Source: a virus
Virus genome (UHGV): UHGV-0041136
Direction: 5' to 3' (one strand)
Length of the DNA stretch: 45,168 nt
Of the stretch, positions 1 to 45,168 are shown piece after piece (the stretch's first letter is position 1; every line of letters starts with the position of its first letter). The translations under genes and the position numbers were made by a program. Under the pieces are notes generated by a model. The model saw only the letters and a list, made by a program, of their open reading frames with translations. It searched no databases and was not told where the DNA came from.

Positions 1-304
1 ACAGCTTAATAATTGGGATAGTGACGCCGATGTGTAAGGCGAAGCGGGCCAGTGACGGGGGTTTATCCTGAATCAGTGGGCGTTCGTCGCCCTTAGACGT
101 AGGCACAAGTTCCCATGACGTGCGGTCGAAGAACTCGATTAACGCATCGCAATAGTCCGGGTCCCACAACGCGGCGGAATTACGGGATGATTGATAAAGG
201 CTCTGTTTGCCGCGTGGTCGTTTACGGCGACGGTTTGCGCTAACAGCTTCTTCATGTGCAGCTTGCACCACCTCTGGCGATGGCTGCTTGAGTTTCAGCT
301 TCAT
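1..304 (-). CDS. terS: terminase small subunit, N-terminal part (runs off window start; continues in frame at window end)
   Basis: ATG at 304..302 preceded by AAGGGGA; frame open to position 1; translation MKLKLKQPSPEVVQAAHEEAVSANRRRKRPRGKQ...DKPPSLARFALHIGVTIPIIKL has a basic N-terminus and HTH-like segment; lies just upstream of terL across the junction. Confidence 0.5.
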   Translation of the reverse strand, partial: MKLKLKQPSPEVVQAAHEEAVSANRRRKRPRGKQSLYQSSRNSAALWDPDYCDALIEFFDRTSWELVPTSKGDERPLIQDKPPSLARFALHIGVTIPIIKL

Positions 305-321
305 AGAATCCCCTTGCGTAT

Positions 322-363
322 GCGTCTGACCATCAGAGCGCATCAGACGCGCCCTACGCGTCT
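322..363 (-). repeat. repeat cluster in terS 5' leader (GCGTCTGA, CATCAGA x2 spaced 10 bp, TCAGACGC inverted copy, ACGCGTCT)
   Basis: read directly: tgcGTCTGAccATCAGAgcgcATCAGACGCgccctACGCGTCT between a TATAAT-like hexamer (375..370, minus) and the terS ATG. Confidence 0.4.
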
Positions 364-2492: not shown

Positions 2493-2521
2493 AATATAAT
2501 AGGGTCTGGAGTAATAGTCAA
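2493..2521 (-). promoter_or_regulatory. sigma70-like promoter, minus strand (-35 TTGACT, 17-bp spacer, -10 TATATT)
   Basis: reverse complement of 2493..2521 reads TTGACT-N17-TATATT; spacer contains a degenerate copy of the shared element (AATATAATAGGGT); sits just downstream of the lysis-operon terminator. Confidence 0.45.
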
Positions 2522-4979: not shown

Positions 4980-5117
4980 CCACCCCCATCATTACTTCAC
5001 AGTTATCACCGTCGCACGCCGAAGTGCTGCGACTTGTTTCATAGGCGTCAACCAGTTCACCTAAAGTAAATTCACAATAGCTGTTCACTCTGTCTCTCCT
5101 CTCGTTTGAGTAAATGA

Positions 5118-5146
5118 ATAGTAGCCTATTCTATCTTAGTGTGCAA
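5118..5146 (-). promoter_or_regulatory. conserved promoter element, minus strand (-35 TTGCAC, 17 bp, -10 TACTAT) with AATAG-N4-CTATT inverted repeat
   Basis: plus strand tgAATAGtagcCTATTctatcttagtGTGCAAg; the same core recurs at 6468, 30060, 39165 and 41829. Confidence 0.5.
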
Positions 5147-5274: not shown

Positions 5275-5288
5275 AATAGTAACCTATT
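5275..5288. promoter_or_regulatory. additional AATAG-N4-CTATT operator-like site
   Basis: AATAGtaacCTATT followed by TTGACC; between the DUF551 gene end and the terminator. Confidence 0.3.
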
Positions 5289-5306: not shown

Positions 5307-5504
5307 TTACACCAGCGATGGCGGCTCTGGTAACGGCATCCAGTGGGTAACATCGTCACTACTGATATTCGAGTTACGCGGCGCCCAACAATCCCAGAAG
5401 CCATCGCAATCCCGCCACATCACCTCAACGTTACCCCCATCCGAAACCAGCACATCTTCAAATTCTTCCGGCATCCGTTCACTACACTCAATCCACTTAC
5501 CCAT
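5307..5504 (-). CDS. DUF551-like small protein, copy 1
   Basis: MGKWIECSERMPEE...VTHWMPLPEPPSLV; WMPLPEPP C-terminus as I recall for DUF551 phage proteins. Confidence 0.5.
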   Translation of the reverse strand: MGKWIECSERMPEEFEDVLVSDGGNVEVMWRDCDGFWDCWAPRNSNISSDDVTHWMPLPEPPSLV

Positions 5505-5514
5505 ATCTCACCCC

Positions 5515-5700
5515 TTATTCATCACACTTCAGAGACTCAGGTAACGGCATCCAGTGTGTTACGCCAACACACTTAACGTATCCATCACAAACAAAGTCAC
5601 CGATGTATCTTGCTATAAAGCCATACCCGGCGCGGGCATAAACAATTACGTCCTCACCCTCTTCCGGCATCCGTTCACTACACTCAATCCACTTACCCAT
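5515..5700 (-). CDS. DUF551-like small protein, copy 2 (tandem paralog)
   Basis: MGKWIECSERMPEEGEDV...VTHWMPLPESLKCDE; identical first 14 residues and shared C-terminal motif with 5307..5504. Confidence 0.5.
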   Translation of the reverse strand: MGKWIECSERMPEEGEDVIVYARAGYGFIARYIGDFVCDGYVKCVGVTHWMPLPESLKCDE

Positions 5701-5850
5701 AAATCACCTCTGATTCGCGATAAACAACACACCAGCTTTCCACGCCCGCCACGCGAGACGCGTCTTAACGTTCAGGTACTCTTTCTTCGAACCCTTGTTA
5801 ACCGGCAGACCCTCGACGACGGCCCACCGTTCAAATGCTTCTCTCATAAC

Positions 5851-6433: not shown

Positions 6434-6467
6434 AACCCTCACTCCTCTGTCTCGTTCCGATAAGTGA

Positions 6468-6496
6468 ATAGTATCCTATTATGTTGGGGTGTGCAA
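6468..6496 (-). promoter_or_regulatory. conserved promoter element, minus strand (-35 TTGCAC, 17 bp, -10 TACTAT) with AATAG-N4-CTATT
   Basis: plus strand gtgAATAGtatcCTATTatgttggggtGTGCAAg; near-identical to the element at 30060..30089 in reverse orientation. Confidence 0.5.
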
Positions 6497-9636: not shown

Positions 9637-9655
9637 AAGGGGCGTTAAGCCCCTT
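9637..9655. terminator. bidirectional hairpin terminator between convergent genes
   Basis: AAGGGGC-gttaa-GCCCCTT; A-run upstream on plus strand gives a T-run after the hairpin on the minus transcript. Confidence 0.5.
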
Positions 9656-9860
9656 CACCGAACGCCAGCCACTTGGCGTCTACTTGCAGCACTTCCGCCA
9701 GTTTAAACAGCGTCGCCGGGCGGACGTCCTGAGTTACCCCGAGCGCAAGCTGGTTAATTGCGCCCTGGGAAACGCCAGCCAGAACAGCCAGACGGCGCTG
9801 GGAGATGCCGAGTTCTTTACGGCGTTGTTCTACACGGATGCCTAGTTCAGATGGTTGCAT
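9645..9860 (-). CDS. XRE-family HTH regulator (Cro/CI-type)
   Basis: ATG 9860 with AAGGAG SD; RRKELGISQRRLAVLAGVSQGAINQLALG is a classic HTH_3 segment; only minus-strand gene inside the plus-strand module. Confidence 0.75.
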   Translation of the reverse strand: MQPSELGIRVEQRRKELGISQRRLAVLAGVSQGAINQLALGVTQDVRPATLFKLAEVLQVDAKWLAFGEGA

Positions 9861-9888: not shown

Positions 9889-9905
9889 TGAATAGTACCA
9901 TATTA
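9889..9905 (-). promoter_or_regulatory. operator copy (AATAGtaccATATT) overlapping the extended -10 (TGgTACTAT) of the regulator promoter
   Basis: minus strand reads ...aatatggTACTATtcacatatc...AAGGAG...ATG. Confidence 0.45.
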
Positions 9906-30059: not shown

Positions 30060-30089
30060 TTGCACACCCCAATATAATAGGGTACTATT
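30060..30089 (+). promoter_or_regulatory. conserved promoter element, plus strand (-35 TTGCAC, 17 bp, -10 TACTAT) with AATAGggtaCTATT
   Basis: cTTGCACaccccaatatAATAGggTACTATTcac, 28 nt upstream of ATG 30117. Confidence 0.5.
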
Positions 30090-30116
30090 CACCTGTAACT
30101 TACTGAGGAAATAATT

Positions 30117-30443
30117 ATGCGTAAATTAGTATTAGCTCTGGGGTTTATGTCTTTTGCTACTTTTGGGTCCCCGTGCGAACAGGTATTTAGTGAATCTGTT
30201 CTTATGGCTTCTGGTGCGCTTGAGAAAGCCGACCCTACTATTGTAAAGGCATTTAAGGACTCTACAGTTCGCGAGTGTGAGGCCGCCGTAGATGTCGGTA
30301 AATCGGGCCTACCCCCGCAAGCCGTAACATACACGGTAGTACGTTCGGTAGAGCAAAACGGAGACGCGTTTTATAGCCTACTGACAGCCACCCGTCTGCA
30401 AATGGTGATGACTGGATGGGCGATAGGCGCGGAAAGTAAATAG
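30117..30443 (+). CDS. secreted small protein (signal peptide)
   Basis: MRKLVLALGFMSFATFGSP... cleavable signal-like N-terminus; first gene of cassette A. Confidence 0.55.
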   Translation: MRKLVLALGFMSFATFGSPCEQVFSESVLMASGALEKADPTIVKAFKDSTVRECEAAVDVGKSGLPPQAVTYTVVRSVEQNGDAFYSLLTATRLQMVMTGWAIGAESK

Positions 30444-30507
30444 TCGCCTTTATTTAAAGGAATCCACTGTGGTTAAATAGGACAAATCCTAAGCACGAGG
30501 AATAAGC

Positions 30508-31638
30508 ATGGCCCGGAAGAAAATAACCGACGAACAGTTGCAGGAAGAATTGAACGCCGGTATGAAGAATATCGACATCGCCCGTAAATACGGCATCTCA
30601 GACCGCGTAATTCGCATCCGTAAAGCGAAGCTGGCTAAGAAAGGCGTAGGCCACGGGCGCGACGTCAGCCACCTTGTGCCAGATGGCTACAAGATTAAAG
30701 GAACGTCGTCCCTGGTGGACGAGTTTGGCAACACTAAGTTGCAATGGGTTAAGACTGACACCGATGCTGAACGTCAGGTCGAGTTGATGAAAGCCGTAAT
30801 TGAAGGCATGAAGTCAGAGATTACCCCCGTTGCGCCTGTTAAAGCGACTCGAGCCAAACGTGACGATAAACTGCTCAATCTTTACACTGTATCTGATTTC
30901 CATCTCGGTATGCTGGCATGGGCCGACGAGAGCGGCGACGACTGGGACATGAAGATTGCGGAAGACCTGTTCTCTCGATGGTTCGACGCTGCGTTTCAGA
31001 AGGCACCAGACGCCGGGACAGGGGTTATTAACCTGCTGGGCGACCTTGCGCACTTCGATAGTCTGGACGCGGTTACCCCCGCAAGTGGTCACGTTCTTGA
31101 CGCCGATACCCGCTACCAGAAACTTGTCCGCTACATGATTCGCATGGTCCGTCGTGTTGTTGATATGGCCCTTGTTAAGCATAAAAATGTTCGCTTGCTT
31201 ATTGTGCAAGGTAACCACGACGAGAGTGGCATGATTTGGTTGGCTGAGATGTTCAGTACGCTATACGACAACGAGCCGCGTGTGTTTGTCGATACGTCGC
31301 CGGATGTTTACAAAATGGTGCAACACGGCAAAACGACGCTGTTCTTTACACACGGGCATAAATGCCGGTTTGAGGTGGTCGAACCCATTATGATAGCTAA
31401 GTTCAGAAAAGCATTTGGCGAAAGCGAGTACAGTTACGCACATGTCGGGCATCTCCACCACCAAAAGATTGTAGAAAGTAGGAATATGGTGGTGGAGCAG
31501 CATCGCACTCTCGCGGCGAAAGATGCATATGCTTCTCGCGGCGGGTGGATGTCTAAGAGGTCCGCTAATGTCATAACCTATAGTTCAGAGTTCGGGGAAG
31601 TAGGTAGGCTTTCAATCTCACCGGAGATGCTAAGATGA
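30508..31638 (+). CDS. HTH-domain protein fused to calcineurin-like metallophosphoesterase
   Basis: N-terminal NIDIARKYGISDRVIRIRKAKL (HTH-like); MPP motifs VSDFHLG (DxH), GDLAHFD (GDxxD), GNHDE, FTHGH, GHLHH in canonical order. Confidence 0.7.
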   Translation: MARKKITDEQLQEELNAGMKNIDIARKYGISDRVIRIRKAKLAKKGVGHGRDVSHLVPDGYKIKGTSSLVDEFGNTKLQWVKTDTDAERQVELMKAVIEGMKSEITPVAPVKATRAKRDDKLLNLYTVSDFHLGMLAWADESGDDWDMKIAEDLFSRWFDAAFQKAPDAGTGVINLLGDLAHFDSLDAVTPASGHVLDADTRYQKLVRYMIRMVRRVVDMALVKHKNVRLLIVQGNHDESGMIWLAEMFSTLYDNEPRVFVDTSPDVYKMVQHGKTTLFFTHGHKCRFEVVEPIMIAKFRKAFGESEYSYAHVGHLHHQKIVESRNMVVEQHRTLAAKDAYASRGGWMSKRSANVITYSSEFGEVGRLSISPEMLR

Positions 31639-31865
31639 CTTCAAAATACAACCGAACAATGACAAATATTCACGGCAGCACTATGACGGTAGACGTTTAT
31701 GATGTGCTGCGTGCCTTCGATATCCGCGACCCGGCGTTACAGCACGCATTGAAGAAACTATTGTGTATGGGCCTTCGCGGACACAAAGACACAGGAACCG
31801 ACTTAGCAGAAGCAATTGAAAGTTTGGAGAAGTTACGGGAGTATAGAAGCAATATTGATGAGTAA
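31635..31865 (+). CDS. hypothetical small protein translationally coupled to the phosphoesterase
   Basis: ATGA overlap at 31635..31638. Confidence 0.45.
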   Translation: MTSKYNRTMTNIHGSTMTVDVYDVLRAFDIRDPALQHALKKLLCMGLRGHKDTGTDLAEAIESLEKLREYRSNIDE

Positions 31866-31869
31866 GAAA

Positions 31870-31889
31870 AAGGCCCCGAAAGGGGCCTT
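31870..31889 (+). other. stem-loop AAGGCCCC-gaaa-GGGGCCTT (GNRA loop) without T tract
   Basis: between 31865 and HNH gene. Confidence 0.35.
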
Positions 31890-31908
31890 ATCGCGATAGG
31901 AGATAATT

Positions 31909-32397
31909 ATGGATTGGAATGAATTTTTCATATACGACTTAATTTCAGGAAGGATATTTAACAGAGTAACACGGTCCGGGAGGGCTAAGGCTGGAGAGGA
32001 GGCGGGTACTATACAGCGAGACGGATATAGAAGGATATTTTTCAGAGGCAAATGGCACGCGGCGCACCGTATAGCATGGGACTTAAACAATCCTAACGAT
32101 AAGCTAACGTCGTCAGATCAAATAGACCATCTAGACCATAACCGAATAAACAATAGACCGCTTAACTTAGCTAAAAAGTCCAATGCGGAAAACCATAAAA
32201 ATATGTCAAAACAGCGTAATAATAAATCAGGAGTAACTGGGGTTTACTGGAATGCAAAAGAAAGGTTGTGGTATGCACAGATATTCAACAATAACGTAAA
32301 AACGCATATAGGGTGCTTTAAGACGCTACTAGATGCAGTTGCCGCGAGGAGAGTTGCTGAAAGAGATTTGGGGTTCCACAATAACCACGGCAAATAG
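31909..32397 (+). CDS. HNH homing endonuclease with AP2-type DNA-binding domain
   Basis: HNH core GKWHAAHRIAW...IDHLDHNRINNRPLNL...NH; C-terminal GVTGVYWNAKERLWYAQIFNNNVKTHIGCFKTLLDA resembles AP2; AT-rich codon usage. Confidence 0.7.
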   Translation: MDWNEFFIYDLISGRIFNRVTRSGRAKAGEEAGTIQRDGYRRIFFRGKWHAAHRIAWDLNNPNDKLTSSDQIDHLDHNRINNRPLNLAKKSNAENHKNMSKQRNNKSGVTGVYWNAKERLWYAQIFNNNVKTHIGCFKTLLDAVAARRVAERDLGFHNNHGK

Positions 32398-32399
32398 TA

Positions 32400-32425
32400 A
32401 GGCCCCGTTATGGGGCCTTTTTCTT
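32400..32425. terminator. bidirectional terminator AGGCCCC-gttat-GGGGCCT + T-run
   Basis: ends cassette A on plus strand and follows the major tail gene stop on minus strand. Confidence 0.55.
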
Positions 32426-38614: not shown

Positions 38615-38846
38615 GGGTGATCACCTCTGATTTCGTCTTGCCTTCGTTGTCAGCGGCGGCGGCCTTTGATTCGTCCTGCTGCTGCCGTTGTGTTTTCTTC
38701 GCTAACTCGGCCTGGGCTTTTTGCTGTTGCTGCGAAACGAGATTCGCCCGACCCTCGTTCCAGCCGATGCGATACTGGTAGATGCCGTGTGCGTAAGCCA
38801 GGATGATGAAACATGCTCCCGCTACGACAGTTGCTTTAAGATTCAT
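38460..38846 (-). CDS. i-spanin candidate (Rz-like)
   Basis: ATG 38846 with AAGGAG SD; N-terminal TM helix then Q/A/K-rich periplasmic helical region. Confidence 0.55.
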   Translation of the reverse strand: MNLKATVVAGACFIILAYAHGIYQYRIGWNEGRANLVSQQQQKAQAELAKKTQRQQQDESKAAAADNEGKTKSEVITREVVKYIKTPGRSMCTFDPERVQLKSRAVANANSIPGYDDDAAAVQTGPAK

Positions 38847-39096
38847 GTTTCTCCTTTCTCGATAAGTAAAGCCCCGCCATAAAGCGGGGCGCTAGTCCTT
38901 ATCATTTAAACATAGAAACGGCGTAATCTCAGTAAACCAGTTACTTTTTACACAAGCAATAGAGTATGGCCCTTCCGAACGCGTCAGCGTAACTACACTC
39001 AGGACTTACGTCCCGCTCCGTTACCTGCCCGCGCCGCGGTCGCTTGCGATATCTCACAAGCTCAGGTGGAGCTTATCATATTTTTAGTGAAAAGTC

Positions 39097-39112
39097 AACT
39101 ATTCGAATAGTT
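39097..39112. repeat. perfect 16-bp palindrome AACTATTCGAATAGTT
   Basis: read directly; contains the CTATT/AATAG half-sites in everted arrangement, about 55 bp upstream of the promoter at 39165. Confidence 0.45.
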
Positions 39113-39163
39113 TATTCCAACATTTACAATTGAGCGGAATAACTGGAATAGGTAAACAAATAG

Positions 39164-39215
39164 TTTGCAGACACCAATATAATAGGGTACTATTCAGTTA
39201 ACTTAAACAGGAGGT
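39164..39215 (+). repeat. 52-bp direct repeat, copy 1 (promoter + leader + SD of cassette B)
   Basis: identical by eye to 41828..41879. Confidence 0.6.
39165..39194 (+). promoter_or_regulatory. conserved promoter element (-35 TTGCAG, 17 bp, -10 TACTAT) with AATAGggtaCTATT
   Basis: TTGCAGacaccaatatAATAGggTACTATTcag then AGGAGG and ATG 39221. Confidence 0.5.
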
Positions 39216-39220
39216 AGTAT

Positions 39221-40033
39221 ATGCAACATGTGATCAGTTTTTCAGGCGGCAGGACATCAGCGTACACAACCCTTGAAGTGCTTAAACTTCACCCCGATGC
39301 TGAGGTCATCTATATGGACACCGGGGCGGAGCACCCCAAGACCTACGAGTTCATCCGCAATTTTGCTAAGCACTTTAATATTGCAGTGACGTGCCTCAGG
39401 GTTGTTCCTAACCCGGAGATGCGTAAGGCCAGCACCTATGAAGTCCTTAGCGTAGATGAAATAGGTCCTGACCTGGAGCCATGGCGCAGAATGCTGCGCA
39501 AGTACGGCCACCCATACGTCGGTGGCGCGTTCTGCACAGACCGGATGAAGACGGTGCCGTTCACCAAATACTGTGACGAGAAATACGGTAAAGGCAAATA
39601 CGACAGATGGCTTGGCATCCGCTGTGATGAACCTAAGCGCCTGGTAAACAGGAAAGAGGGGTTCCACTATCTTGCAGACATCAGCGACTTCGAAAAACAG
39701 GACATTATTGACTGGTGGGCAAACCAGGAATTTGACCTTGGTATAGAGGAGCACTTGGGTAACTGTGTTTTTTGTATTAAAAAGAGCCTACAAAAAGTAG
39801 CACTGGCCGCTAAGGATGAACCACAGTTGGCTGAACAATTTTGGGAAATGATTCAGGAAGAAGACATAAAGCGGGATAAGGTTATGTACCGGTCCAACAG
39901 AAGCCTCGGCGAGGTTATCGCGCTGTTCCGGGATGAGGGTAGGGGTGAGCTTGCGTCTCGTATGCGGTCAATGCGGCAGTACGACACAGGGTCATGTAGC
40001 GAAAGTTGTGAGGCGTTTGGGGGTGGCGAATGA
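39221..40033 (+). CDS. PAPS-reductase-like PP-loop ATP pyrophosphatase family protein
   Basis: PP-loop ISFSGGRTS at N-terminus, YMDTGAEHPKTYEF, GAFCTDRMKTVPF; Cys-rich C-terminus GNCVFC...GSCSESC. Confidence 0.65.
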   Translation: MQHVISFSGGRTSAYTTLEVLKLHPDAEVIYMDTGAEHPKTYEFIRNFAKHFNIAVTCLRVVPNPEMRKASTYEVLSVDEIGPDLEPWRRMLRKYGHPYVGGAFCTDRMKTVPFTKYCDEKYGKGKYDRWLGIRCDEPKRLVNRKEGFHYLADISDFEKQDIIDWWANQEFDLGIEEHLGNCVFCIKKSLQKVALAAKDEPQLAEQFWEMIQEEDIKRDKVMYRSNRSLGEVIALFRDEGRGELASRMRSMRQYDTGSCSESCEAFGGGE

Positions 40034-40251
40034 TTACCGAAAAGCACGACAATGGCTCCATTTCTATTGATACCAATGATGGAAGGCATTTCTTTGCCCA
40101 CTTCATTAATGGCTCGTACAACTTGATAGAGGTTGTATCTGGCGGTTGTGTGGGAATAGGCAGAATTAAAGACGAGGAAAACATTAATCGCATAATACTG
40201 AGATGGGTCGAGCTTAACAAAGAGGTTCCACTCGCAGAGCCACTTAAATAA
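40030..40251 (+). CDS. hypothetical small protein coupled to the PAPS-reductase-like gene
   Basis: ATGA overlap. Confidence 0.45.
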   Translation: MITEKHDNGSISIDTNDGRHFFAHFINGSYNLIEVVSGGCVGIGRIKDEENINRIILRWVELNKEVPLAEPLK

Positions 40252-40255
40252 AACT

Positions 40256-40280
40256 AAGGCCCCACTATGGGGCCTTTTAT
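40256..40280. terminator. bidirectional terminator AAGGCCCC-actat-GGGGCCTT + TTTT
   Basis: A-run on one side, T-run on the other; between convergent gene ends. Confidence 0.55.
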
Positions 40281-40741
40281 CATTCTGGCTTAGTAACCTT
40301 CGCCGCCTTGCTTACCGCCTCTACACCATCGGTATCGGTAACTTTAACGAAGTATTCGCCGACAGCATTAACCGTCAGAGACAAAGCCTCTTCAGGTGCG
40401 TTGACAACTTCCTTTCCGTCTTTGTACCAGGTCAGAGCATATGGCGCTTTCCCCGCTTTAACTTCGACAGTGATAGTTGCGCTGCCGTCGGTCAGTTCAA
40501 CGTCCTGCGGTTGCACAGAGAAGTACACGTCACCAGCGTCCGCCAGATACGGAATCTCGTAAAGCATGCCCGCCGCGGGTAGCGCAATACCGGTTTTATC
40601 CGCAAACGGCATATCGTCTACCGGTGTACCTAGTACACTTTCATCTTCAATAAACACCACGTTCTCGCCGGAGCCAGATACGCGGGCGTACTGGACTACA
40701 CGACGTGATGGCACATCAGTTACTTTGAAAAAGCCCATCAT
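40280..40741 (-). CDS. Ig-like domain protein
   Basis: ITVEVKAGKAPYALTWYKDGKEV...EYFVKVTDTDG matches the Ig-like pattern also seen at 36109..36453. Confidence 0.5.
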   Translation of the reverse strand: MMGFFKVTDVPSRRVVQYARVSGSGENVVFIEDESVLGTPVDDMPFADKTGIALPAAGMLYEIPYLADAGDVYFSVQPQDVELTDGSATITVEVKAGKAPYALTWYKDGKEVVNAPEEALSLTVNAVGEYFVKVTDTDGVEAVSKAAKVTKPE

Positions 40742-41784
40742 TAATCCCCTTTCAGATAATCAGCAACACGTTTATCGAGTTCCGCCATCTGCTTAAGCGT
40801 GAGCGGATTCCCGAAACCATCTACAGATATTACGCGAAACTCTTCCGGTGATATACCGCTGTTACGGAAAATCTTACCGCGAACAGGGCCGAGCGCTTCA
40901 TCCTGAAACCATGCGGGTTGTTGCTTAAGGAACTCGTAGTAAGTGGTGTCTGCGCTCACCTGAGTACCGCCATCCGCACCTTTAGCCGCTCGTTTCGCCC
41001 CTTTATCGAGGAAGTCGAACTCTGAACTGATTACTGGGGCCGTGGTACTTCGGCAATTCGGATGGGCGGGTGGCATTGGGCCTCTACCGATTTCCCACGT
41101 CATCCCGTCTCTGGCTCTGCAAATTGTACTAGTGCGGCTGTCCAGCGTTGACACCCACTCGTACTTCTCGATGATGTCGTCGTTCTGGCGATACGTCTCG
41201 TTACGTGCTTCGTTGGATATGTGGGACAGCGCGGTGCGGATTACCGTAGCTGCATTACGTTCAGTGATGTCCGCCAGCCCGCCGGCACCAACAACATTCT
41301 TAACAATCTGCCGTGTAGTCTGGCCTTGGACAAAGCCCATCTTAACGCCGGCTACCAGGCGCGATACTTCTGTTTCACCCCAGCCCGACATCAGCTTAGT
41401 GAAGTCAACCGGCTTATCACTTAGTGACAGAGGCTGAAACTCGGCAGCGGCCCACACTTGTTCCGCGGTGGGGGTAACGAATTCCGCGTTAACGTTGGCT
41501 GCCAGCGTTTTTACGTTCCACTCAGCCTCATACGCCGCCAGTTCCTTAAGGTCTTCTGTCAGCTTTGTTTGCCAGTCACCTGTAAGCCCTGTCAGTGCTT
41601 CTTCGAGGTCACGTAACAGTTTATTTAGCCGAGCAGTGCTTCGCCCGTCGTCGCCGAATAACAGCACCTGTCGTTTGATTTCGTCCCGCATTTCCTGAAT
41701 GAATGGTGCGAGGTCTTTCACTTCACCGGACGCGGTGCGTTGTAGCCATATCTGGTGACTGATTAAGGATGTAAGTAAGCTCAT
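40741..41784 (-). CDS. head morphogenesis protein (Mu F / SPP1 gp7-like minor head protein)
   Basis: ATG 41784 with GGAGGG SD (track extends to 41841 across the opposing promoter); motif STLDSRTSTICRARDGMTW...PPAHPNCRSTT. Confidence 0.6.
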   Translation of the reverse strand: MSLLTSLISHQIWLQRTASGEVKDLAPFIQEMRDEIKRQVLLFGDDGRSTARLNKLLRDLEEALTGLTGDWQTKLTEDLKELAAYEAEWNVKTLAANVNAEFVTPTAEQVWAAAEFQPLSLSDKPVDFTKLMSGWGETEVSRLVAGVKMGFVQGQTTRQIVKNVVGAGGLADITERNAATVIRTALSHISNEARNETYRQNDDIIEKYEWVSTLDSRTSTICRARDGMTWEIGRGPMPPAHPNCRSTTAPVISSEFDFLDKGAKRAAKGADGGTQVSADTTYYEFLKQQPAWFQDEALGPVRGKIFRNSGISPEEFRVISVDGFGNPLTLKQMAELDKRVADYLKGD

Positions 41785-41827
41785 ATGCCCTCCTGTGGTA
41801 TCGCCAGTGTAACGCATAAAAATAATA

Positions 41828-41879
41828 TTTGCAGACACCAATATAATAGGGTACTATTCAGTTAACTTAAACAGGAGGT
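41828..41879 (+). repeat. 52-bp direct repeat, copy 2 (promoter + leader + SD of cassette C)
   Basis: identical by eye to 39164..39215. Confidence 0.6.
41829..41858 (+). promoter_or_regulatory. conserved promoter element (-35 TTGCAG, 17 bp, -10 TACTAT) with AATAGggtaCTATT
   Basis: same sequence as 39165..39194; ATG 41885. Confidence 0.5.
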
Positions 41880-41884
41880 GAAAA

Positions 41885-42169
41885 ATGTCTCACAAATTTA
41901 AAGGTACGGACGGTGAATGGGTTAATCTCGGAACAGCTATCTGGGCGGGTGACGTTTATGTGGCGGAGGTAATGAGTATGCGGGAGAAGTCCTCAGTAAA
42001 ATTGGCTAACGCAAAACTTATCTCCTCGGCGCCTGAATTACTTGAAGCCCTTCGCCAGCTTCGCGATTACGTCGAGGATGTTTGCGCTGTATCTTCCGAT
42101 GATTGTCATGAGGATCACCCATTAAATCAGGCCAGCAGAGCAATCAAGAAAGCATTAGGAAAGCAATAA
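41885..42169 (+). CDS. hypothetical protein (cassette C cargo)
   Basis: single gene flanked by conserved promoter and bidirectional terminator. Confidence 0.5.
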   Translation: MSHKFKGTDGEWVNLGTAIWAGDVYVAEVMSMREKSSVKLANAKLISSAPELLEALRQLRDYVEDVCAVSSDDCHEDHPLNQASRAIKKALGKQ

Positions 42170-42173
42170 AACT

Positions 42174-42199
42174 AAGGCCCCTTTTGGGGCCTTTTCTTT
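42174..42199. terminator. bidirectional terminator AAGGCCCC-tttt-GGGGCCTT + T-run
   Basis: between stop 42169 (plus) and portal stop 42198 (minus). Confidence 0.55.
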
Positions 42200-43667
42200 A
42201 CTCCTGTTGCTGCGCCGACTGCGGAATCTCTCCGGCCACCTGAGTAACGGCACCTAACGGCAACGGTGCATCCTCAATAGCGTTCTGAATATCCTCATCA
42301 GTCCAGTCAGTTACGCCAGCTTTACGCAATGCCGCATAGTAGGCGGTAGCGGGTAACAAGCCGGCGTTGATATCCGCCATCCACTGAGCGCGGTCCTGAG
42401 CCGTCATCGGTTGCAGGAAGAACTCCATGTTAAGTTTGAACTCAATCTCTGTGCCTTCACGCAACCCAAGCATTGCCGCCGCCCAGCGCAACGCATCAGT
42501 GTACGCCATGCTTACGTTACGTGCGATTGTCGCCATAACTGACGTATCAGCGCCGCGTTGTAGGCGGGCCGATTCAGCGGTGATTTGCTGCGTCGGGGTG
42601 ATAAGCTGCGCGCCAATCTGGATAGCCTGATTCTCTTTATCAAGCATATTTTGTTTGGCAAGGTTGTTCTCTCCCGCCTGAACCAGAAACGCATTGCCGC
42701 CGTAGCCAATGTTATGGCCTGAGCGCGACCCCATGCGCACGCCGTGGGGGTTGGCTTCTTTCCATTGCTCCATGCTCATGTTTTCACCAGGAGCGATGAA
42801 TAAAGTGGGCTGGCCTACAACGAAGCTGGACTCCTCATTGTCTGCGCTGTTGCGGAAATGCCCGATATTAAGCTCAGCTAACGGCAGCAAAGGGGCGTCG
42901 TCGATGGTAGCATCGTTGTTGCTTGCCCCAATGAACGTGAACGGGATTTTGCCGCGCAACTGTTCACCAAGTTCCGGGAAGATTTCGATTACTTCACCCT
43001 GAGCACCACCCTCGGCATCGAAGCGGTAAATGCGCTGGCGGTAGCGCCCGTCAATCAAATCGAGAACGCGGTATTGTTCGCCGAACTTGGTTTCGAACTC
43101 AGCGCCCGGTTCTGCGTATTCCCACACCTCACGCAACACGACCATCATCACACGGTTAACTGAACCGATGCGGGTCAGTCGCCAGTTGATGATGTTCTCT
43201 GCGGTGTAGAATGCGATGACCGGGTTTAATAATCCCGCGTTCTGTTCTGCCGCCGTTGCCGCTGCTGTCTCCGGCGCGTCCACCAGCAACCCGCCACGCC
43301 CTACCGAGTCAATCTCCATCAGCGTATCCTGCGCATGCTGCCACAGCCCGACACCGGAGCCGTCGGCGTTACGTAACAGGTACTCCAGTTCAGGCGGGAT
43401 AATTTGCTCGGGGTCTTTGCGCATCACTGACCCGACCATCCCCGCCAGGGTGCGTTTAGTGAAGTTGTAGCAGATAGCGCCGTTCTCGTATTCTTCCTGG
43501 CGCTGGGCGGCGTAGGTCGGGTCAGGCTCGTTCTTCCCGACGTTGCGCAGGTAACGGATGAGGTCGCCTTCCAGCGCGTGGCGGACCTTCTGCCATTTAT
43601 CGAAGTGATGCAGCCATTCCCGGTGTTTAGTCTTAACACCCTGATTCTGACCGTTCATAGTTAACAT
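42198..43667 (-). CDS. portal protein
   Basis: 489 aa immediately downstream of terL with AAGAGGA SD; size and position. Confidence 0.65.
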   Translation of the reverse strand: MLTMNGQNQGVKTKHREWLHHFDKWQKVRHALEGDLIRYLRNVGKNEPDPTYAAQRQEEYENGAICYNFTKRTLAGMVGSVMRKDPEQIIPPELEYLLRNADGSGVGLWQHAQDTLMEIDSVGRGGLLVDAPETAAATAAEQNAGLLNPVIAFYTAENIINWRLTRIGSVNRVMMVVLREVWEYAEPGAEFETKFGEQYRVLDLIDGRYRQRIYRFDAEGGAQGEVIEIFPELGEQLRGKIPFTFIGASNNDATIDDAPLLPLAELNIGHFRNSADNEESSFVVGQPTLFIAPGENMSMEQWKEANPHGVRMGSRSGHNIGYGGNAFLVQAGENNLAKQNMLDKENQAIQIGAQLITPTQQITAESARLQRGADTSVMATIARNVSMAYTDALRWAAAMLGLREGTEIEFKLNMEFFLQPMTAQDRAQWMADINAGLLPATAYYAALRKAGVTDWTDEDIQNAIEDAPLPLGAVTQVAGEIPQSAQQQE

Positions 43668-43679
43668 TGAATAATCCTC

Positions 43680-44930
43680 TTAAAGTGCGAAAGTCACCGG
43701 GATGTTGATTACGGGTTTAACCACCGGCATCTCGTAAACTACAGGATAGCCGAGAGCGTCCGCCATATGGTCAATAACGCCATCTTTAGCAGGCTCTCCG
43801 TTATCGTCATATGCCTGCTGCTCCAGCGTCTTCGCTATCTCAGGGCATAAGTGGTCGTTAACCCACAGCTTACCTTTTTCCAGTGCGGTATTCACGGCTA
43901 AAACACGGTCTTTAACCGGAGGGTTGGCAGATTTAGCGCGAACATCAAACCCGGCCTGCTGGAGTAATGCAATATCAGAGATTGATGCTGAGTTTGTCTT
44001 GCGGTTCTTGCCGCTGGCGTCCGGGTAAACGACGATGCGGTGGCCTTGTGACTTCCACTTCTCCGTAATCACTCTCACGGTGTCCGGCGTATCGAACAGG
44101 CCTTTCAGTTCTGCTACCGCGTGCCAGCCGTCTTTGCGCTGTACGTATACGGCGCTTGCGTTCTTCGTAACGTTGAAGTCCTGCCCGATGTATAGCGTGT
44201 CGCCTGGTTGGATTGTCTCTTTGCTGCGGTGCTTGCGTCGGTCATACGCGTAATACACGCTGCCGGAGGTAAGGTTGACGAACTCACCATTCAAATACGC
44301 GTTAATCAGTTGCGCGGGGTAAGTCTCGGTCAGTGAGCTAATGTAGTCAGGTGGCAGGAATCTCGCGTTCTCGTGAGTGGATGCCTGCACCATCGAGTAA
44401 CTCGGCGTCGGGTTCTCTTTGAACTTGGCGTAGACGAACTTGAACCCTTCCGGTGTCGTGGTAACGGAGATGTGGTTAATTACGCCAGGGATAACAAGAC
44501 GCATACGGGCGACAATTTTGTTCCATGCCAGTTCCGCTTTCTCACGGCTAAGTACATCGAGCTCATCCACGACAGCGGCCGCGATTTTGAAACCGACTAT
44601 CGAGCCGGGGTTATCCATCGAACGGCAGATAACGGTCCCGAGCACAGTCTTACCGCGAGTAACCACGACTTCTTTGTCACCGGATTTAACCAGCACATCG
44701 AGGCCGAGCAGGTTAGCAGCTTCCTCGAATGTCGGGTAAAAGATGTCACGTATGGCCGGGTATGTCGGGCCGAAGTAGCCCAGGCGCGTACCGGGGTGCT
44801 TGAGCATAAACGTAAGCAGGTCAAGGCAGCCGACAAACGTCTTGCCGCTACCGAAGCCGCCGACATATGCCTTGTATTTGTTATCGCAATTCAGGAACAG
44901 CGCCTGAGGGGCGGATAGCTGAATACTCAT
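43680..44930 (-). CDS. terL: terminase large subunit
   Basis: Walker A YVGGFGSGKTFVGC near N-terminus; acidic nuclease-type C-terminal half; ATG overlaps terS stop. Confidence 0.85.
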   Translation of the reverse strand: MSIQLSAPQALFLNCDNKYKAYVGGFGSGKTFVGCLDLLTFMLKHPGTRLGYFGPTYPAIRDIFYPTFEEAANLLGLDVLVKSGDKEVVVTRGKTVLGTVICRSMDNPGSIVGFKIAAAVVDELDVLSREKAELAWNKIVARMRLVIPGVINHISVTTTPEGFKFVYAKFKENPTPSYSMVQASTHENARFLPPDYISSLTETYPAQLINAYLNGEFVNLTSGSVYYAYDRRKHRSKETIQPGDTLYIGQDFNVTKNASAVYVQRKDGWHAVAELKGLFDTPDTVRVITEKWKSQGHRIVVYPDASGKNRKTNSASISDIALLQQAGFDVRAKSANPPVKDRVLAVNTALEKGKLWVNDHLCPEIAKTLEQQAYDDNGEPAKDGVIDHMADALGYPVVYEMPVVKPVINIPVTFAL

Positions 44931-45168
44931 TCCTCTACCTCGCCCATGTTCGTTGTTACGATTTTACCTACAGGCTCTGCAACACTGAAAATAATCTCGG
45001 TAGGGGTTGTTTCTTCGGTCGATTCAACTGGTTTCTCTTTGCCGAGGCCCAGCTTAGCTGCGGCAAACGTAGCAGAGATGCCGGCCGCGCCTGTCTCAGT
45101 GAAGTACGCCTCTTCCAGCGCCTGCGCGGTCTCCCAGGCTTCGGCAAATGCGGGAATCTCGCGCAGCC
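44927..45168 (-). CDS. terS: terminase small subunit, C-terminal part (starts beyond window end; joins 1..304 in frame if circular)
   Basis: minus frame open from 45168 to TGA at 44929..44927; ...LREIPAFAEAWETAQALEEAYFTETGAAGISATFAAAKLGLGKEKPVE...NMGEVEE. Confidence 0.5.
   Translation of the reverse strand, partial: LREIPAFAEAWETAQALEEAYFTETGAAGISATFAAAKLGLGKEKPVESTEETTPTEIIFSVAEPVGKIVTTNMGEVEE

Follow-up and report, generated by a model that had tools for sequence, protein, structure and literature searches.

Morons are accessory genes that carry their own promoter and factor-independent terminator and lie between genes which are adjacent in related phages, as described in the work of Hendrix and Juhala for the late operons of the lambdoid phages HK97, HK022 and lambda. 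In the T4-type phages, variable, uncharacterised open reading frames (ORFs) are bordered by PeSL motifs, repeated sigma-70-like early promoters with GC-rich stem-loop terminators, which shield the late genes from early transcription and between which recombination gives rise to insertions, deletions and replacements among close relatives (PMC2839356, PMC4122927). Three cassettes of accessory genes (A, B and C) are found on the plus strand of the virus genome UHGV-0041136, the whole 45,168-nucleotide stretch of which is referred to here as the window. They are set into the late structural operon, which is encoded on the opposite strand, and unrelated genes are enclosed in them by near-identical promoters and hairpins. 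The cassettes are a clear and well-documented new example of the shuffling of accessory genes known from phages, and the feature is real and non-random. They are likely to be moron-type units that are shuffled at their boundaries, that would be expressed early in infection and at whose ends late transcription would stop, or leak through and restart. The window shows ~90% identity to Escherichia phages of the genus Kagunavirus (Guernseyvirinae), and the alignments to these relatives cover 60-70% of a 3.5-kb query, as the cassette interiors differ. A literature search turned up no paper on this cassette system in the Guernseyvirinae, while the two-way terminators are already marked in the GenBank record of phage Snoke.

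The promoter-leader of cassette B (39164-39215) matches that of cassette C (41828-41879) without a difference over exactly 52 bp (TTTGCAGACACCAATATAATAGGGTACTATTCAGTTAACTTAAACAGGAGGT), as claimed in the original prediction made from the window sequence, with the identity ending at a G/A difference on the left (39163/41827) and an A/G difference on the right (39216/41880). This stretch contains a -35-like TTGCAG, a 17-nt spacer, a -10-like TACTAT, a 15-nt leader and the sequence AGGAGG. Three matches to the 29-mer TTGCAG-N17-TACTAT occur in the window, two of them exact and the third, in cassette A (30060-30088), with two mismatches, and none was found in the shuffled sequences (0/100). The promoter type TTGCAC/G-N17-TACTAT is present in five copies in total. 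At the other end of the cassettes, the hairpin pattern AAGGCCCC-N{3,6}-GGGGCCTT has four occurrences in the window (31870, 32399, 40256 and 42174) and none in the shuffles. Folding energies of these hairpins range from -15.8 to -19.2 kcal/mol on the two strands (z-scores -2.7 to -3.5); they have a GC-rich stem of 8-9 bp and are followed 3' by U-rich tracts on both strands (UUUUAUCAUU and UUUUCUUUAC on the plus strand, (UU)AGUUUUAUU on the minus strand), both of which were flagged in the promoter/terminator scan. The combination of a GC-rich stem, a U-tract on either strand and a location between convergent genes points to bidirectional intrinsic terminators. The stop codons of the cargo lie at 40249-40251 in cassette B and 42167-42169 in cassette C, with the hairpins starting 4-5 nt further on. 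On the convergent side, the Hoc-like gene ends at 40280 and the portal gene at 42198, with 3-4 nt between their stop codons and the hairpins. The stably folding hairpins with A- and T-run flanks shared with the convergent genes (40256 and 42174), the near-identical promoter of cassette A and its terminators of the same family (31870 and 32399), as well as the ORF content and gene spacing of cassettes B and C, were all found as originally described.

The cassettes occupy three fixed gaps in the late structural operon, between the genes for the tail tube and tail chaperone (site A), the Hoc-like protein and spanin (site B) and the portal and MuF proteins (site C). An exact scan of IMG/VR for the 22-nt promoter core CCAATATAATAGGGTACTATTC returned 46 places in 42 loci, and a census combining IMG/VR, the window and GenBank loci comprised 53 core instances. 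All but two of these lie in the three flanking contexts of sites A, B and C, which are bracketed by the same core and terminator in more than 25 related genomes, and the spacing from the core to the Shine-Dalgarno (SD) sequence and the ATG on the plus strand is fixed in the 53 instances. In GenBank, the 59-bp promoter-leader was found in 64 phage records, which without exception belong to Guernseyvirinae of Escherichia or Salmonella, and TAAAACTAAGGCCCC-N4/5-GGGGCCTTTT directly follows the last stop codon in nearly all cassettes of which the 3' end was read. When the cargo proteins were clustered, at least nine unrelated cargos, or none, were observed at site B and at least ten, including an N6/N4 DNA methylase, or none, at site C. 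At site A, which was judged on the cassettes read far enough, a 376-aa exonuclease is encoded in every complete cassette read, while the first gene (coding for a superinfection-immunity protein, a 108-aa or a 97-aa protein) and the last genes (PNKP-like phosphatase and kinase-like protein, Rha/ANT protein or HNH) are variable. The same cargo is also found at different sites. Four loci encode a 173-aa clamp-like protein at site B and two encode it at site C (at least 89% amino acid identity), a 57-aa ORF occupies site B of one genome but site C of another, and a gene for a NinC-like protein occupies site B in the window and site C in Jerseyvirus S4lw. In an alignment of the site B and site C copies of the 173-aa cassette with their flanks, identity is ~40% outside the cassette but rises to more than 90% in the stretch that begins shortly before the -35 and ends at the hairpin. 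Between the promoter and the NinC stop codon, the NinC cassettes of the window and S4lw share ~87% identity, and they show the same breakpoint behaviour. As the homology is confined to the span from the -35 to the hairpin, the mobile unit appears to extend exactly from promoter to terminator.

Sites without cargo and sites with more than one cassette were likewise observed. Site C is empty in Snoke and Bas70, where a remnant of the palindrome and -10 (AATAGCATACTAT) is joined to the hairpin AAAGCCCCTTTCGGGGCT, and site B is empty in S4lw and FSL SP-101, where the hairpin stands alone. At site B of locus L073, NinC and orf79 are followed by a degenerate second promoter-leader, another ORF and a terminator, an arrangement of two cassettes stacked in tandem with the internal promoter copy kept. 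The flanks are 88-97% identical, which is the background of the genus, whether or not the cargo is shared, and a strict search for near-identical flanks (>93%) around different cargo found none. The shared sequences could alternatively reflect vertical conservation of promoters and terminators typical of the lineage, around cassettes that are fixed rather than mobile. The use of the same promoter type by early-region genes and the constancy of the exonuclease at site A are compatible with such descent, which is nevertheless highly improbable given the occurrence of the same cargo at different sites with homology stopping exactly at promoter and hairpin, the existence of empty and stacked sites and the uncoupling of cargo from flank similarity; for sites B and C the comparisons of cargo and breakpoints already contradict it. 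Homologous recombination at the near-identical boundaries would instead replace, move, stack and delete cargo, and this would explain why unrelated genes share identical regulatory boundaries. The original prediction is, overall, partly supported. Its modular promoter-gene-terminator unit that has been reused is strongly supported by the same boundaries around many unrelated cargos and by the same cargo at sites B and C, and the cargo swapping at the same sites that it had proposed to look for in other genomes was found, whereas its inference of antitermination, treated below, is not forced. Some faults were noted in the annotations of the relatives: the product names in OQ660438 (S4lw) are shifted by one gene, OR594180 (SHAK7693) is filed as Autographiviridae and a run of tiny minus-strand ORFs is annotated over site B in PQ436005 (K-02). 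In OQ696342 (K1B4) gaps of ~900 nt without annotation are present at sites B and C.

The extent of the identity between the two promoter-leaders in the window can be compared with that in five other genomes with both cassettes B and C, in which the exact run shared by the B and C promoters is 23-32 bp. The promoter-leader of cassette B in the window best fits the site C promoters of other genomes (49-52 bp) as opposed to their site B promoters (39-45 bp). The simplest reading is that the cassette comprising NinC and orf73 came to site B with a C-type promoter-leader, and it is for this reason that B and C would be identical over 52 bp.

In common with morons, the cassettes have, at the level of sequence, their own promoter (TTGCA(C/G)-N17-TACTAT upstream of the gene) and their own terminator (hairpin and U-tract 4-5 nt after the stop codon), are inserted between genes which are adjacent in relatives and vary in their presence. 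Their G+C content is atypical in some cargos (orf73 41%, orf94 47%) and equal to that of the genome in NinC (both 50.6%). They differ from morons in that their boundaries are standardised, with near-identical sequence at three sites in dozens of genomes, in that the promoter is drawn from a palindrome-bearing set of the phage itself and in that the units lie on the opposite strand with two-way terminators. The phage is, furthermore, virulent, so that expression from a prophage is not the point. With PeSL they share a repeated sigma-70-like promoter upstream of variable ORFs, of which the window has five copies, and motifs that mark the end points of exchange, as seen in the breakpoints at the -35 and the hairpin and in the stack of L073. 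A PeSL is, however, a single composite motif of less than 100 bp with the stem-loop in or next to the promoter, whereas the hairpins of the cassettes lie 0.3-2.3 kb from the promoter and adjoin it only at the empty site C, and the palindrome inside the cassette promoter has AT-rich arms of 5 bp only. PeSL also occur in hyperplastic regions of myoviruses, whereas the cassettes described here are set, on the opposite strand, into three gaps of the late operon of a siphovirus. Because the composite-motif feature of PeSL is absent, the cassettes are filed as morons with standardised boundaries that work in a PeSL-like manner. The features of the window are listed in Table 1.

Table 1. Positions of the cassette, promoter, terminator and regulatory features in the window
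Feature	Position	Strand	Details
Cassette B promoter	39165..39193	+	-35 TTGCAG 39165-39170, 17-nt spacer, -10 TACTAT 39188-39193; fixed distance to SD/ATG
Palindrome AATAGGGTACTATT, putative operator	39181..39194	.	14 bp, overlaps cassette B -10
Cassette B leader	39194..39220	+	SD AGGAGG 39209-39214; leader type recurs at sites B and C elsewhere
Cassette B cargo 1, NinC / PAPS-reductase-family PP-loop protein, 270 aa	39221..40033	+	PF01507, phrog_33262
Cassette B cargo 2, 73-aa ORF (orf73)	40030..40251	+	Overlaps NinC gene (ATGA), predicted to be translationally coupled
Cassette B/Hoc-like bidirectional intrinsic terminator (predicted)	40256..40276	.	-15.8 (cargo strand) and -18.4 kcal/mol; flank AAAACTAAGGCCCC identical in relatives
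Cassette C promoter	41829..41857	+	TTGCAG-N17-TACTAT; palindrome 41845-41858
Cassette C cargo, 94-aa ORF (orf94)	41885..42169	+	phrog_1273, E 8e-17
Cassette C/portal bidirectional intrinsic terminator (predicted)	42174..42193	.	-16.5 (cargo strand) and -19.2 kcal/mol
Cassette A	30060..32419	+	Promoter TTGCAC-N17-TACTAT 30060-30088; terminators 31870-31889, 32399-32419
Highly conserved non-coding element, cassette B to spanin gene	38800..39150	-	Conservation; fold -100.9 kcal/mol, z -3.8 (minus strand)
Early-left promoters TTGCAC-N17-TACTAT	6467..6480 and 5117-5130	-	Palindrome sites; predicted to drive early-left genes
Palindromes in TTGACA-N17/18-TATAGT promoters	9936, 12639, 16384		Strong predicted promoters, replication genes
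XRE/Cro-type HTH_3 regulator, 71 aa, candidate palindrome binder	9645..9860	-	PF01381, E 1e-12
Strong predicted leftward promoter TTGACT-N17-TATATT	2493..2521	-	10/12; -10 block ACCCTATTATATT = minus strand of cassette cores

Control of early promoters by the binding of Cro and CI repressors to operators is known from lambda, 434 and P22. The palindrome in the cassette promoters, AATAG-N4-CTATT (14 bp), has nine perfect sites in the window, compared to 0.05 expected, and 15, compared to one expected, when one mismatch is allowed. Eight of the nine perfect sites lie over the -10 or the spacer of predicted promoters, with three of the nine in the cassette promoters, while the site at 5275 is without a clear -35. 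The cassette promoter is not specific to the cassettes and forms part of a genome-wide, palindrome-bearing set. The arms of the palindrome are invariant, its central 4 nt are variable, and it occurs in three registers relative to the hexamers; it is kept at the same promoters in Snoke, Bas70 and Jerseyvirus S4lw, which represent two genera. Such a pattern is characteristic of the sites of dimeric DNA-binding proteins and not of RNA polymerase contacts. The palindrome has been reported previously in phage fBC-Eco01, in the form of seven PHIRE motifs (tgAATAGTa-ccTATTat-T) which were ascribed to a phage RNA polymerase (PMC9825357). Although the fBC-Eco01 motif is the same palindrome, it is extremely improbable that it serves as a promoter for a phage-encoded RNA polymerase, as the annotations of Snoke and Bas70 include no such polymerase gene, the motif sits amid recognisable -35 and -10 hexamers in three registers, and a perfect palindrome with a variable centre is what would be expected of the site of a dimeric repressor. 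The present analysis would correct the published ascription.

The gene of a small HTH_3 protein, the candidate binder in Table 1, adjoins the palindrome sites at 9891 and 9936 and is conserved in Snoke, Bas70 and S4lw. As in the Cro/CI systems, a phage-encoded HTH_3 protein is encoded beside its likely sites, and 14-bp palindromes overlap the core elements (-10 and spacer) of sigma-70 promoters. The window differs from these systems in being the genome of a virulent phage and in having approximately nine putative sites spread genome-wide, the accessory cassettes included. The 71-aa protein probably binds the palindrome and, as this is common to the cassette and early promoters, the cassettes probably belong to the early/middle regulon of the phage. 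Each unit would consist of a sigma-70-type promoter (TTGCA(C/G)-N17-TACTAT) with the 14-bp palindrome, a short leader with a strong SD, the variable cargo and the two-way hairpin. The host RNA polymerase would fire the cassette promoters early, alongside the replication and early-left genes with palindromes, and the XRE-family repressor (9645-9860) would probably bind the palindrome and shut the set down later. Transcription from the cassette and convergent late transcription would both be stopped at the hairpin, which would keep them from running into each other. In RNA sequencing of phage K1B4, expression of the first gene in cassette A reaches its maximum together with that of the DNA polymerase and methylases, as opposed to the neighbouring structural genes (PMC12645636), which is weakly consistent with co-regulation.

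Several points weigh against the moron-type explanation with early expression. The -35 TTGCAG matches three of the six consensus positions, and the whole promoter seven of the 12 of the sigma-70 consensus. Because of this -35 the cassette promoters were missed in a generic sigma-70 scan, the overall counts of which were at chance level and which was relied on for individual strong sites only. On the plus strand the core further includes a perfect TATAAT, and good -10 hexamers occur on its minus strand as well, so that transcription may also begin elsewhere in it or run the other way. The palindrome might instead be bound by another HTH protein of the phage (HTH_17, 6901-7098). The only Kagunavirus RNA sequencing study, that of K1B4, leaves cassettes B and C unannotated and uses coarse time classes (PMC12645636), and recombination at the boundaries is deduced from homology breakpoints.

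The original prediction further held that the late leftward transcript must pass the hairpins and that attenuation or antitermination is implied. This does not follow, as the hairpins occur at empty sites too and a leftward promoter-like element is present at site B. From the hairpins at empty sites, the late operon would be punctuated independently of the cassettes. Site B itself is located between the Hoc-like terminator and the conserved promoter-like element TTGACT-N17-TAAGCT (39103-39075), and the minus strand of all three cassette cores reads the 13-mer ACCCTATTATATT. In a PHROG scan of ten small leftward ORFs, all of unknown function, no antiterminator family was found. Taken together, the hairpins at empty sites, the leftward promoter-like elements and the lack of an antiterminator among the ORFs scanned suggest that termination and restart, or leaky read-through, are at least as likely as dedicated antitermination.

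Two other arrangements of late transcription were weighed. The core may mainly serve the late minus strand, either as a restart promoter or as a truly bidirectional one, with rightward expression of the cassettes being secondary. Its minus strand shares ACCCTATTATATT with the -10 block of the promoter at 2521-2493, that of cassette A reads GTTACA-N17-TATATT, with a score of 9/12 in the sigma-70 scan, and the core spacer is conserved far beyond the needs of a plain sigma-70 promoter. At B and C, however, the -35 hexamers of the minus strand are poor (2-3 of 6), a separate conserved leftward promoter-like element already exists at site B, the core at site A of S4lw is without a minus-strand -10, and an SD and ATG follow every core at a fixed distance on the plus strand, all of which make a primarily leftward core rather unlikely. 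The second arrangement, that of the original prediction, is a single long late transcript that crosses the hairpins by means of dedicated antitermination, involving a Q- or N-like protein or a put-like RNA. The leftward order of the lysis, nin-like, terminase, head and tail genes resembles the lambda late operon, the U-tract hairpins face the late strand at each site, empty ones included, and a conserved structured leftward element lies just past cassette B, with a second copy in the early control region of some relatives. Nevertheless, no antiterminator family was found in the ten small leftward ORFs or in the annotations of Snoke and Bas70, candidate restart promoters are present at 39103-39075, 30099-30071 and 399-370, and RNAalifold gave no convincing covariation for the conserved element, and dedicated antitermination is accordingly viewed as quite doubtful. 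Within the moron-type explanation, late leftward transcription would most likely end at or leak through the hairpins and restart at adjacent leftward promoters.

A more far-reaching interpretation, for which the chances are judged to be small, is that the cassettes constitute a standardised, self-insulated mobile unit which is PeSL-like outside the T4 group, with a two-way, XRE-controlled core, a two-way hairpin and an element of ~300 nt that would be a new cis-acting leader, small RNA or promoter governing the spanin-scaffold-capsid block. The core would then drive the cargo rightward under the XRE repressor and restart late transcription leftward. Elsewhere on the late strand, at 2493-2590, the endolysin gene is followed by a terminator and then by the strong predicted promoter (2521-2493), which precedes the nin-like genes and terminase and has an operator-like site over its -35. 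A promoter-like TGTACA-N18-TATAAT (399-370, minus strand) is also located just upstream of terS.

The conserved non-coding element beside cassette B (38800-39150) includes a palindrome AACTATTCGAATAGTT (39097-39112), the TTGACT-N17-TAAGCT described above (39103-39075) and a terminator-like hairpin (38890-38871) just ahead of the spanin gene. When a 263-nt query of the element was used, 180 GenBank phage records covered at least 80% of it, with at least 94% identity among the records listed. The element is 96% identical in Jerseyvirus SP-101, compared to 77-85% for the flanking genes. The RNAalifold analysis, which gave no convincing covariation, was made on sequences of low diversity, one of them with wrong coordinates; by eye, two hairpins hold their position with differing stems, and no structure is claimed. 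A doubtful 36-aa ORF is annotated in the element in some records and is kept in the window only by means of a different start codon. Its C-terminal AFGRA-LYC shows third-position changes, and other conserved stretches are read in different frames. Possible roles for the element are those of a leader, a small RNA and a promoter element. A second, diverged copy occurs in the early control region of some relatives, by the early-left promoter (L005, 8450-8790; L073, 1660-2200; Snoke, L046, 37681-37757). In L073 the second copy runs directly into the site B promoter, which could be due to recombination of the genome or to a join made across the repeat during assembly. An IMG/VR match to the element core in L069 falls within a 437-aa ORF in an unrelated phage and was taken as a chance or coding match.

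The larger of the two proteins encoded in cassette B matches Pfam PF01507 with 37.3 bits (cut-off 22.5), although only its N-terminal 60 residues fit the model, and phrog_33262 with an E-value of 6e-104. A PP-loop-like SFSGGRTS occurs at residues 6-13, and residues 5-66 match the APS reductase 2goy in the PDB. In tblastn comparisons it shows 91% amino acid identity to the site C gene of S4lw and 66% to genes annotated as NinC in P22-like Salmonella phages. The above-threshold PF01507 match and the PP-loop-type motif place the protein, on sequence grounds, in the PAPS-reductase/NinC family. The family, PF01507 and the PP-loop-like motif are shared with the NinC of lambda and P22; the protein differs from these in being encoded outside the nin region and in travelling with a partner ORF, which is 72-79 aa in size in the two-gene units. 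The partner in the window, orf73, has no match in Pfam, PHROG or phage tblastn searches, while its five homologues (79-95% identity) are each encoded directly 3' of a PAPS_reduct gene. The NinC cargo appears to cross phage lineages and to adopt local boundaries. A pair of NinC and a 72-aa ORF is also present in unrelated siphoviruses (L071/L072, 2129-3219; L048; L049), where it forms an opposite-strand insert between the terminase and portal-side genes (packaging/head module), with another promoter and another hairpin (AAGCCC...GGGCTT).

The orf94 protein of cassette C is likewise encoded at site C in L001 and L045, and no relative of it was found in the PDB. Cassette A of the window codes for a 108-aa protein, the 376-aa SbcD-like exonuclease, a 76-aa protein and an HNH endonuclease. 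The gene of the latter (31909-32397, 41.5% G+C) is flanked by two copies of the terminator hairpin, while in relatives a single hairpin adjoins the tail tube gene. It looks as if the insertion of the HNH gene brought or duplicated a terminator.

The three safe-harbour gaps with their standard boundaries provide a concrete rule for the gain and loss of accessory genes in the Guernseyvirinae (Kagunavirus and Jerseyvirus). Members of the Guernseyvirinae are of use in phage therapy, biocontrol and as synthetic phages, and the boundaries could be employed as landing pads for payloads. With their help, cargo missing from annotations can be recognised as well; this includes methylases, NinC, clamp-like proteins and superinfection-immunity genes and may affect host range and defence evasion. 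The shared set of palindrome-bearing promoters, possibly one early regulon, is found in a virulent phage.

The terS gene is divided over the two ends of the window (1-343 and 44930-45168). The window is therefore a complete genome of a Kagunavirus that is circularly permuted and opened inside this gene. Its gene content and order are those annotated in Snoke and Bas70, in the opposite orientation. The minus strand carries, in order, the small early-left genes, holins, endolysin, nin-like genes, terS, terL and portal, then, past cassette C, the MuF and Hoc-like genes and, past cassette B, the spanins, scaffold and capsid, up to the tail tube, with cassette A preceding the tail chaperone, tape measure and further genes up to the tailspike. 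The replication genes are located on the plus strand at 6.9-20 kb. The GC skew tracks gene orientation and gives no replication-origin signal near 39 kb. Rfam searches (at the gathering threshold for the whole window and in E-value mode for 38700-42400) and tRNA scans returned nothing relevant, with only two sub-threshold sraL matches, both on terminators. In the early-left region, two neighbouring small paralogues (65 and 61 aa; phrog_924) at 5307-5716 contain a 77-nt direct repeat with 84% identity and represent a local tandem duplication.

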